Below are positions 61,429-64,000 of a stretch of 64,000 bases of DNA, piece by piece (within the stretch, counting starts at the first letter, position 1; each line of letters starts with the position of its first letter). The notes below the pieces were generated by a model that worked only from the letters and a program-made list of their open reading frames with translations, was not told where the DNA came from and ran no database searches. The position numbers were made by a program, and so were the translations under genes. Source of the stretch: a virus (lineage: Duplodnaviria > Caudoviricetes); IMG/VR virus record IMGVR_UViG_3300021387_000272, positions 17,374 to 81,373 of that record. One strand, 5' to 3'.

Positions 61429-61791
61429 TTATCCAAAGGTTAGAGTCTGTGTATATTCTGCCTTAATCTTGTAGCCTAAAGACTGCAAATACTCAAACAA
61501 TTCCCTCGGATGATATGCAGACAACGGATTATCAGAACGCATAGTACTTAAGAGAGCCTTCTTTTCACTAGCCGTGAGTTTTCTATAAGATTTAGGTTTT
61601 GTAGAATCACCCTCATCTCTCTTTCTCTCTCTGGCCTTCTTCATAGACTCTCTACTTAATTGCTTTGCGCACTCAATACAATGTGGCCTGTAGCCATCCT
61701 TTGTGTAAGCACTCTTGTAAAACTCTTCCAATGGCTTTTCTTGGCCACAGCGAGTGCATACCTTAGTTCCCTTTTCTAAGTCTGCTTGCAT
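61429..61791 (-). CDS. Zinc-finger protein without a recognisable nuclease domain
   Basis: KVCTRCGQEKPLEEFY...DGYRPHCIEC; the likely start is MQADLE at 61791 because the longer start lies inside a hairpin. Confidence 0.7.
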   Translation of the reverse strand: MQADLEKGTKVCTRCGQEKPLEEFYKSAYTKDGYRPHCIECAKQLSRESMKKARERKRDEGDSTKPKSYRKLTASEKKALLSTMRSDNPLSAYHPRELFEYLQSLGYKIKAEYTQTLTFG

Positions 61792-61810
61792 AATTTTAAT
61801 GATTAGTGGA

Positions 61811-61854
61811 TATAAAAATAAAACCAAGGCAGAGTGTCTATTCCCTGCCTTGGT
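61811..61854 (-). terminator. Intrinsic terminator (- strand)
   Basis: Perfect 10-bp stem ACCAAGGCAG/CTGCCTTGGT followed by TTTATTTTTAT on the - strand. Confidence 0.75.
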
Positions 61855-62205: not shown

Positions 62206-62799
62206 TTACTTCAAATGTAGTCCTAAATCCTCTAAGAACTTACAAATTTCAGTGAAAGTAGTCTTACCACAACTTGATACTCTCAGTAAGGCTGCTTTGG
62301 TATAGTTATCTGCCAAAGCTTTTGCTGTGAGGCCAAAGAAGTATAAGCCATTTTCTTCACAGAACTTTGTAAGCACCTGTTTAGCACGTATGGATAAGTC
62401 TGAATTACATAAGAGCAAATTCTGCTTGTTCTTATTTAATTCAGCTCTCCTTGAGAGTAACATATTCAGCTGCTTAGTGTGATAGGAAATCTCTCCGTCA
62501 ATCTCCTTTCCTTCCCAAGATTCTAGTAGGGCAGGGTTTATTGGAGTATCTTCCTCTGGCAACATAATTTCCCACGTATTATGGTGTATTATCACCCTTG
62601 GCCCTCCTTCAATTGGGATAATAGCTGTGCTAACATTCCCGTCAAGGTCTCTATAGAGGGTAGAAATGGGATATTCTGCCGTGTGAATATACTCAGTAAG
62701 AGCTTCCCTAAACTTTGTAAAGGAAGCTACCACATTCATGTATAGCTCCCTATTCAGATTTTCCTTGTTCATTTTCCAATTCTTTATAATGGTTATCAT
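62206..62799 (-). CDS. Protein with a C-terminal RNA polymerase alpha-CTD-like domain
   Basis: SDLSIRAKQVL...TKAALLRVSSCGKTTFTEICKFLEDLGLHL parallels the alpha-CTD pattern LSVR..N.L...DLL...N.G.KS..EI...L...GL.L; likely start at 62772. Confidence 0.65.
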   Translation of the reverse strand: MITIIKNWKMNKENLNRELYMNVVASFTKFREALTEYIHTAEYPISTLYRDLDGNVSTAIIPIEGGPRVIIHHNTWEIMLPEEDTPINPALLESWEGKEIDGEISYHTKQLNMLLSRRAELNKNKQNLLLCNSDLSIRAKQVLTKFCEENGLYFFGLTAKALADNYTKAALLRVSSCGKTTFTEICKFLEDLGLHLK

Positions 62800-63019
62800 C
62801 TATAAGTACATCAACTATCTTAATAAACGTATCTAAGTCACTGATAACAAGACCATCCTTATAGCGAATATCTCTATAGTGACTAATGATACGTTTTATG
62901 TACTCTTTCTTGGTGAATGGATTGAGAACTTTTTTCAGCTCTTCCTTACTCATTCTCCTAAGTTGGAGAACTGCACAAGGAGTCCAGAGGTCTTTCTCAA
63001 CGCTAGCCATAATAGTCAC
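62750..63019 (-). CDS. Hypothetical protein
   Basis: 89-aa ORF, operon packing. Confidence 0.55.
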   Translation of the reverse strand: MTIMASVEKDLWTPCAVLQLRRMSKEELKKVLNPFTKKEYIKRIISHYRDIRYKDGLVISDLDTFIKIVDVLIDDNHYKELENEQGKSE

Positions 63020-63255
63020 TTTTTTATAACCATATCACTTGGATAACGAGAAGCACGTTCTTCAGAAACCTCAACAAGGAAATCCCAACACTTTACATAG
63101 TACCTGGGAGTGTGAACTTTAACAGCAGCAAAGAATGATGCAGCAGAAGTGTGATTCTCCTCTAACATTTTCTTGTGGCTGTGCATAACATAGGCACCTC
63201 TTGAAGATGCCACACATTTACGGTCAAACCGTTCTCTTAAATGTTTAATTTCCAT
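63016..63255 (-). CDS. Hypothetical protein
   Basis: 79-aa ORF with AAAACAACAGTTATTATG initiation region. Confidence 0.55.
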   Translation of the reverse strand: MEIKHLRERFDRKCVASSRGAYVMHSHKKMLEENHTSAASFFAAVKVHTPRYYVKCWDFLVEVSEERASRYPSDMVIKK

Positions 63256-63286
63256 AATAACTGTTGTTTTAAAGATTAATAAATAG

Positions 63287-63357
63287 TTGGAGTAGCAGGA
63301 GTCGAACCCACAACTACAGAACCAAAATCTGTCGTATTACCGCTATACTATACTCCA
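63287..63357 (-). tRNA. tRNA-Gln(UUG)
   Basis: Acceptor TGGAGTA/TACTCCA; D-arm GTAT/ATAC; anticodon arm ACAGA-TT-TTG-GT-TCTGT; T-loop TTCGACT; CCA not encoded. Confidence 0.92.
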
Positions 63358-63365
63358 ATACCAAA

Positions 63366-63394
63366 TACTGCCCATCCATCTCAGACAGGCAGTA
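63366..63394 (-). other. Hairpin in the tRNA spacer
   Basis: TACTGCCTGTC-TGAGATG-GATGGGCAGTA (11 bp with G-U) 8 nt upstream of tRNA-Gln. Confidence 0.55.
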
Positions 63395-63455
63395 CCCATT
63401 ACCAATAACTAAAAAGACTACATAGACACATTTATATTCAAGGGAATTGGTCTAG

Positions 63456-63493
63456 TGTTCCCAACGAGAATCGAACTCATATCTACTCTTTAG
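63456..63493 (-). tRNA. 3' exon of an intron-split tRNA (most likely Arg-UCU)
   Basis: CT-AA-AGAGT-AGAT-ATGAG-TTCGATT-CTCGT-TGGGAAC-A then CTA; the 5' half is absent and replaced by intron sequence. Confidence 0.7.
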
Positions 63494-64000
63494 CCTACCA
63501 CTCTATGTTGCCATAGCCAAACAATTAGTGATGCAGGGACGTAAGTAATTCTGAATTATTTCATCAGGCACCATTTTTTAATGTCCCATATAGTCTTTTG
63601 TTTGTTGTGGTCTGGACTGTCTCTTTACCATATTGAAATTCTTGCAAGATTAAATTTGCTTATATAGTCTTTTCTTTTATTTTTCCGTACTTGTCCTACA
63701 GCTTAACGTATTCACCATAGGGGTGCGCAGTTTATTTCACCTGAAAATACTTAGACTAACTTCACAAAATTAAAATTTCAACTTAGGTATCTCCCGTTCA
63801 GTCTCTACACGATTATGTGAAGTAGAAGTTAACTTCTTTATTCCTTTATAGAACTTACCATTTTCGCTCGGTATTGTCCTTACACATTATTGATTAGTGC
63901 TCTGTGCCAATCTATCCACAGAATTTTCGCATGAAAGGATTTCCACCGAATTTAGGAGATTCTACATAGGGATTTCTCGCCTATGCACTTCTTGTTTTGG
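63494..64000 (-). mobile_element. Group I self-splicing intron (5' end outside the window)
   Basis: P3 ATCTCC/GGAGAT; P element AAATTCGGTGGAA; Q AATACCGAGC; R GTGTAGAGACTG; S AAAGAGACAGTC (P7 GACTG/CAGTC); P8 TACC..TTGAAATT/AATTTCAA..GGTA; ACCAC/GTGGT pairing; CTATG-GCAA-CATAG hairpin; terminal G. Confidence 0.88.

Follow-up and report, generated by a model that had tools for sequence, protein, structure and literature searches.

A probable tRNA-Arg gene of a presumed crAss-like phage split by an IC3-like group I intron

Positions 63456-64000 (minus strand) of the window, the whole 64,000-nucleotide stretch of viral DNA analyzed here, probably hold (we put the chance at roughly 80%) the 3′ portion of a tRNA-Arg gene, likely tRNA-Arg(CCU), from a presumably crAss-like phage, in which an ORF-less, IC3-like group I intron of 506 nt separates tRNA positions 34 and 35. 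What is new here is an oversized IC3-type intron, its probable location at 34/35 of a phage tRNA-Arg, a predicted C.A pair at the splice site, and evidence for the swapping of peripheral inserts. An earlier note made from the sequence had proposed that a group I intron interrupts a phage tRNA gene here, and this proposal was borne out by the order of the core elements, by covariation across 67 modelled pairs, and by the tRNA 3′ half. For the window copy, the missing exon, the identity of C34, the catalytic competence, and any regulatory role are inferred.

The window covers positions 17374-81373 of a linear IMG/VR record that is 81,373 bases long and has an estimated completeness of 80%. As the end of the window is also the end of the contig, the 5′ exon and the 5′ splice site are absent from the record. 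Placement using the homologue L038 indicates that the contig end cuts the split gene one base into its 5′ exon. No tRNA half was found at the other contig end of the 81-kb record, and the intron was present in single copy only, with no second copy found in that record. The phage nature of the contig is indicated by a row of giant virion proteins (1523-3771 aa). The same contig also encodes a family A-type DNA polymerase, an rIIA-like protein, helicases, and a Sak4-like protein.

Anatomy of the tRNA 3′ half and the intron

The 3′ exon was read directly from the sequence at 63456-63493 (-) and corresponds to tRNA positions 35-73. It consists, in order, of the loop bases C35 U36 A37 A38 (CUAA), the anticodon-stem strand AGAGU, a 4-nt variable loop (AGAU), the T arm AUGAG-UUCGAUU-CUCGU, the acceptor strand UGGGAAC, and the discriminator A73. 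The variable loop length and the discriminator are those the earlier note had described. The CCA end is not encoded after this half. Its downstream neighbor is an intact tRNA-Gln(UUG) at 63286-63357 (-), identified by ARAGORN and by the Rfam tRNA model (62.9 bits); the 81-kb record yielded no other complete tRNA. The split tRNA itself was missed by ARAGORN in default mode and at the Rfam curated thresholds, both of which reported only tRNA-Gln(UUG). At 61429-61827 (-), 1.6 kb downstream of the tRNA pair, is a free-standing gene for an endonuclease VII/HNH-like protein of 132 aa (phrog_1035, E=3e-13).

The intron spans 63494-63999 (-) and was delineated by an RF00028 match together with family alignment and covariation. 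It ends in GUGGUAGG, preceded by CUAUGGCAACAUAG-A-, and its last base, the omega-G at 63494, abuts C35 of the 3′ exon. This placement of the terminal G and of the exon start, also the one originally suggested, agrees with the register of the tRNA half and with the GUGG(U/C)ANG| ends of the relatives. Reading 5′ to 3′ along the minus strand, the elements are the guide GAAG, P2 with a GAAA loop, P3, J3/4 (UAAA), P4, P5, P6, GUAGAGACUGAACGGGAGAUACCUAAG (J6/7, P7, P3′, and the start of P8), a long P8, CAGUC (P7′), and a branched P9.

All coordinates that follow refer to the minus strand. The internal guide GAAG, forming the 3′ strand of P1, lies at 63988-63991 and was assigned from covariation of guide and exon triplets across the family. 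It is followed by the P2 hairpin (63964-63986) with its GAAA tetraloop at 63973-63976. The 7+2 pairs of P2 were canonical in 25/25 aligned family sequences, with two-sided changes in 6 pairs. The P3 5′ strand AUCUCCU (63954-63960) was aligned with its partner GGGAGAU (63789-63795). The first six P3 pairs were invariant and canonical in 25/25 sequences, while the seventh (U36 with G) was variable and canonical in 23/25. The order of pairing in P3 is presumably that of the Azoarcus intron. In P4, also placed by alignment, UUCGGU (63945-63950) pairs with ACCGAG (63867-63872), and one U-A pair becomes A-U in L025 and L038. P5 (63877-63939) consists of UCCUU/AAGGA, a variable insert, and a conserved CAC-11 nt-GUG hairpin, and the helices from the alignment were also present in the minimum free energy (MFE) fold. 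P6/P6a (63810-63866) likewise has an insert that varies, with covariation (G-C / A-U / G-U) at the P6a base.

The P7 5′ strand GACUG (63799-63803) was aligned with CAGUC (63615-63619), with two-sided changes in 3/5 pairs (e.g. GAGUA/UAUUC in L025 and L038). By homology, P7 would hold the guanosine-binding G-C pair. Aligned positions 63628-63787 form P8, which contains a CCUAAG...UAUGG 11-nt receptor motif, an 8-bp P8a, and a lineage-specific insert of 133 nt (63641-63773), in line with the extension of about 130 nt noticed earlier. In relatives, the length of this insert ranges from about 30 to 130 nt. A conserved palindrome, CUUGCAAG, at 63641-63660 is situated at the 3′ base of the variable P8 insert in nearly all family members. 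The P9 region (63498-63610) is a three-way junction of P9 (CCAC/GUGG), P9a with an insert, and P9b, and the MFE fold reproduced this junction. All 7 pairs of P9a covary, and P9b is the hairpin CUAUG-GCAA-CAUAG at 63503-63516.

All conserved core segments of the window intron equal the family consensus. The IC3 features found were the anticodon-loop location, the combination of an L2 GAAA loop with a P8 11-nt receptor, and the absence of P5abc. On this sequence evidence, 63494-63999 was confirmed as an Azoarcus-like (IC3-type) group I intron. The thermodynamics of single peripheral inserts gave z-scores of -0.5 to -1.7, no better than shuffles, and such scores are uninformative for an AU-rich RNA like this one. 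No ORF of 40 aa or more was present in 63456-64000, which agrees with the earlier finding that no homing endonuclease ORF is visible.

A comparison with RF00028, which the earlier note had put forward as a check, gave a match below the gathering score. At a permissive threshold, 63715-63992 (-) matched with 22.7 bits (E=0.0019 in an 801-base search), while the gathering score of 50 was reached by nothing in a scan of the whole window or in 13 relatives. The large peripheral inserts disrupt the fit to the model. For tRNA introns, 18-20 bits have been used by Williams 2020 (bioRxiv 10.1101/2020.01.27.920355).

A family of introns in phage contigs

An exact 27-nt core word was found in 18 IMG/VR stretches and an exact 18-nt P3-P4 word in 27, many of these on contigs of 100-410 kb. 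We extracted 27 distinct family copies and aligned the 25 that were shorter than 700 nt. Fourteen helices were mapped from the window onto this alignment, with the 3′ partner slid by 1-3 columns as the control. Across the 67 modelled pairs, 97.2% of cells in the 25 sequences were canonical, compared to 32-43% in the slid controls. Two-sided changes were present in 24 pairs, compared to 7-15 in the controls. Covariation support was strongest for P2, its GAAA-capped tip, P7, P9a, and the bases of P6a and P8a. P3 and P9 were nearly invariant within the family and hence uninformative on pairing. The ORF-less members are 390-590 nt long, larger than the classical tRNA introns, with the extra length contributed by lineage-specific inserts in P5, P6, P8, and P9.

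ARAGORN -i reported split tRNAs in 13/18 relatives, placing the intron by eukaryotic/archaeal rules and miscalling the anticodons. The junctions of the relatives were therefore re-derived for each copy by enumerating candidate 5′ and 3′ junctions and keeping those that gave a tRNA with a 7-nt loop. Most relatives turned out to interrupt tRNA genes (Leu-UAA, Ser-UGA, Arg-UCU, Arg-CCU, Gly-UCC, and CAU). The exon/guide pairing CUU/GAG accompanied insertion after position 34 in Leu(UAA) (L007, L011, L014, L016, L027, L032), in Ser(UGA) (the second copy in L003), and in Arg(UCU) (L006, L015, L020). Insertion after position 36 was accompanied by UCU/GGA in Arg(UCU) (L003, L018/L019) and by CAU/GUG in CAU tRNAs (L004, L010). 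The pairing CUC/GAA(G) was found after position 34 in Arg(CCU) (L038/L039) and after position 35 in Gly(UCC) (L025). Whatever the class, all three exon bases pair with the guide triplet that immediately precedes (U)GC-P2, and both P1 and the junctions gain independent support from this. Where the junction of a tRNA-borne relative is unambiguous, the intron ends in GUGG(U/C)ANG|, the exceptions being L009/L033 and L017 (GUGGUAG|).

Several copies depart from this arrangement. In L008, L026, L031, and L030 (two copies), no tRNA exons surround the ribozyme; these copies have GUUCUUUGAAA... upstream and are followed by either a terminator-like hairpin (GGGUUUCACAAACCC and a U run) or the next tRNA. 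Three exon-less copies lack the terminal G. The flanks of the copy in L013 are not tRNA-like and are apparently coding (exon end ...ACUUCUU, guide GAG). In the CAU-tRNA copies of L009 and L033, the intron ends in GUGGUAG and the exon restarts directly at the stem strand, such that any G-ended splice leaves a 5-nt anticodon loop with positions 37-38 absent; the gene may be defective. In L014, a tandem duplication ahead of the intron repeats the final ~20 bases of the tRNA-Leu 5′ exon. At about 2400-2860 of L029 (a 410-kb contig), the ribozyme lies between the tRNA-like stem strands ACAAC ... GUUGU with zero loop bases left, and this locus represents a tRNA-shaped scaffold enclosing the ribozyme or, alternatively, a dead gene.

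A blastn search of 50,697 GenBank phage records with the 621-base region gave no match. Two family-specific words gave 0 exact matches in 185,579 bacterial and archaeal species genomes, an exact-word scan that diverged copies would escape. No closer IMG/VR relative was retrieved by an exact exon word, a guide word, or the neighboring helicase protein. Within the material examined, the sequences thus far place the family in phage contigs only. The best explanation for these data is a family that has colonized at least six kinds of tRNA and exchanges its peripheral inserts.

Identity of the tRNA and the pair at its splice site

The terminal base of the window, at 64000 (-), is a C, which is probably the last 5′-exon base C34, as judged from its position and from identity to L038/L039. 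The first 16 minus-strand bases of the window, CCAAAACAAGAAGUGC, are identical to L038/L039 from the last exon base onward, and the 23-nt intron/exon junction word is present in three independent metagenome contigs besides the window. L038/L039 contain the complete gene, with the stem strand ACUCU, CUC|CAAAACAAGAAGUGC..., a 435-nt intron, ...GUGGUAGG|CUAA, AGAGU, and AGAU. The 5′ anticodon-stem strand ACTCT, predicted in the earlier note, is thus seen in a complete homologue. The exon of L038 reads ACUCU-CUC|CAAAAC, and its anticodon arm and variable loop are the same as in the window. When spliced in silico, L038 yielded a canonical 73-nt cloverleaf with an A-containing D loop, which ARAGORN called as tRNA-Arg(CCU), and its intron lay between 34 and 35, the position anticipated for the window.

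The terminal C, the 16-base identity to L038, and the guide GAAG together lead to tRNA-Arg(CCU), split after C34, as the most likely identity of the window tRNA, a reading drawn from one terminal base and homology. An Arg isoacceptor had been expected from the start; the anticodon UCU assigned to it then gives way to the likelier CCU.

The pair at the splice site bears on this assignment. The window guide is GAAG, whereas Arg(UCU) relatives have GGAG. The exon strand of the window P1 lies beyond the record, and the homologue L038 supplies CUC|C/GAAG, with C.A in place of U.G. Relative to the Arg(UCU) members (CUU|C, guide GGAG), the exon base has changed from U to C and the guide base from G to A, turning U.G into C.A. 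The same CUC/GAAG pairing is present in L025 (Gly(UCC)), such that the C.A arrangement recurs in two tRNA contexts. The coupled changes are predicted to keep a wobble-shaped pair. PMC5769748, citing Doudna, Cormack and Szostak 1989, describes the C.A+ pair as isosteric with G.U and able to replace it in group I P1. Against the favored reading, C at -1 is rare, and the Tetrahymena intron loses its activity when the related pair C-G occupies this site (Williams 2020), so the window copy could splice poorly; the P1 predicted for the window/L038 type is also only 4 bp. These coupled U-to-C and G-to-A changes provide a natural test of whether wobble shape, rather than a particular sequence, marks the 5′ splice site.

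Codon usage was tabulated for the 27 long ORFs of the window. AGG occurs 229 times there (13 per 1000 codons) and AGA 442 times, and together they account for 83% of Arg codons. A supply of AGG-reading tRNA makes sense for a phage with such heavy AGG use.

The atypical C at -1 could also be a sign of decay. Such a copy would be dead for splicing because of the C.A pair or other changes, and the split tRNA would be a pseudogene kept as selfish DNA. An intron without an endonuclease, together with relatives that look defective (L009/L033, which lack loop positions 37-38, and L014 with its duplicated exon piece), would fit this explanation as well. We nevertheless regard a dead copy as unlikely, given core segments that all equal the family consensus, exon and guide changes that are coupled and recur in L038 and L025, a 3′ exon that is an intact canonical half, and the heavy AGG use of the phage.

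Alternatively, the same intron at the same site could split tRNA-Arg(UCU), with a 5′ exon ending in U34 paired to the guide. L006, L015, and L020 are precisely such genes, interrupted after U34 and sharing the 3′ exon start CUAA; moreover, U is the usual -1 base and AGA the commonest Arg codon. However, the window base before CAAAAC is C, as in L038, while the Arg(UCU) members have U before CAAA. With the guide GAAG instead of GGAG, U34 would also form a Watson-Crick U-A pair and no wobble. These differences make tRNA-Arg(UCU) quite improbable.

That the window holds a free-standing ribozyme beside a tRNA fragment, comparable to the members found in tRNA leaders without exons, is very improbable. 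There is precedent in the copies of L008, L026, L030 (two), and L031 that lack surrounding tRNA halves, and the P9 insert of the window is 90% identical to that of L008. Yet the omega-G of the window abuts a tRNA 3′ half in exact register, and the 23-nt junction word is shared with three other contigs, one of which has the full 5′ half. Two anticodons that had been listed as alternatives were rejected: GCU (Ser) would need splicing after U33 without guide pairing and a long variable arm that is absent, and a CUA amber suppressor would need a 3-nt variable loop and conflicts with the 5′ stem strand ACUCU of L038.

Proposed splicing, known relatives, and insert turnover

For the favored split tRNA-Arg(CCU), a splicing pathway can be outlined by homology. 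A P1 of 4 bp would arise when the guide GAAG pairs with exon bases C32-U33-C34 and intron base C+1, placing C34 opposite A as a C.A wobble. Exogenous guanosine bound at the P7 G-C pair would attack after C34. The omega-G (63494) would then occupy the same P7 site and the exons would be joined, giving the anticodon loop CUCCUAA. The L2 GAAA loop and the P8 11-nt receptor would brace the fold, as in Azoarcus. That splicing gates the tRNA supply is speculation.

The J6/7-P7-P3′-P8 region of the window is near-identical to what we take to be the corresponding region of the Azoarcus sp. BH72 pre-tRNA-Ile(CAU) intron (GUAGAGACU..ACGG....ACCUAAG, in the same order). The GAAA loop of P2 and the CCUAAG...UAUGG at the base of P8 presumably equal the Azoarcus IC3 tetraloop/11-nt-receptor pairing. 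The two also share a location in a tRNA anticodon loop and the lack of both P5abc and an ORF, and the P1 predicted for the window is short (3-4 bp), as in Azoarcus. In contrast, the Azoarcus intron is about 205 nt long, is inserted at 36/37, has U.G at -1, and resides in a bacterial host. The window intron is 506 nt (~2.5 times longer through inserts in P5, P6, P8, and P9), is probably inserted at 34/35, is predicted to have C opposite A, and resides in a phage. The cyanobacterial tRNA-Leu(UAA) introns resemble the window copy in being IC3 and inserted after 34, and they have the CUU/GAG P1 of the Leu(UAA) family members. The window copy differs from them in residing in tRNA-Arg, in its predicted CUC/GAA(G) pairing, and in being about twice the size.

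Among bacterial tRNAs, Williams 2020 distinguished four classical settings (Leu.3Ug, Arg.5Ug, fMet.2Ug, Ile2.5Ug) and 17 new ones. The Agrobacterium-type Arg.5Ug intron also splits tRNA-Arg(CCU), but does so after position 36 with U-1. The proteobacterial Leu.3Cg intron also has C-1, but in a Watson-Crick C-1:G pair, while C-1 of the window would face A. The T4 td/nrdB/sunY, Twort, and SPO1 introns are phage-borne, like the present family, and self-splicing, as is predicted for it, but they belong to other subgroups and interrupt protein-coding genes. According to a 2014 review, every phage intron known at that time lay in a protein gene, although phages carry many tRNA genes (PMC3984707). No report of group I introns in phage tRNA genes was found in the literature searched, a search of incomplete coverage that leaves absence unproven.

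A homing endonuclease gene, as in the phage protein-gene introns, also occurs within the family. L027:2427-3032 (+) encodes a 201-aa LAGLIDADG protein (PF03161, E=4.5e-22) inside a tRNA-Leu(UAA) intron copy, and this gene marks a mobile intron family. It lies between P7 and P3′, not in P8, with its stop codon in the CCUAAG of P8. The suggestion that the P8 insert of the window is an endonuclease remnant found no support, as the insert has no ORF, shows no similarity to the L027 LAGLIDADG protein (tblastn against the window intron gave only E=10), and folds with z=-0.5 relative to shuffles.

Over 967 nt (62554-63520), the window and L037 share 98.3% identity, in a segment that includes the P9b hairpin, the 3′ exon, tRNA-Gln, and the next genes. 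Within the rest of the intron, only conserved core pieces match, and the P5, P6, P8, and P9 inserts are unrelated. In comparison, the P9 insert of the window is 90% identical to that of L008, the exon-less copy in a 339-kb phage. Either near-identical phages carry different intron variants at one site, through replacement or recombination, or one of the two assemblies is a chimera joined in the repeat. The contigs of the window and of L037 both break inside P1/P2, which fits a repeat common to many genomes in the sample, and the shared intron core probably breaks metagenome assemblies at such places. As the window copy is truncated, L038/L039 are the better objects for experiments.

We tentatively propose that the oversized IC3 introns form a phage-restricted mobile pool. 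Its members may hop between tRNA isoacceptors of crAss-like and jumbo phages of the rumen and gut by retargeting a 3-nt guide, and co-infecting phages may exchange peripheral modules. The Arg(CCU)/Gly(UCC) members might employ a natural C.A+ wobble at the 5′ splice site, which would make splicing, and with it the supply of AGG-reading tRNA, sensitive to pH or ionic conditions while the phage infects. This scenario is unlikely as a whole.

Split genes of this kind are invisible to standard tRNA finders. Phage tRNA repertoires are therefore undercounted, as are the arguments about codon compensation or recoding that are built on them. A large tRNA cluster with a split tRNA-Leu, in the phage contig L011, lies beside a tmRNA gene at L011:6555-6905 (-) (RF00023, 70 bits).
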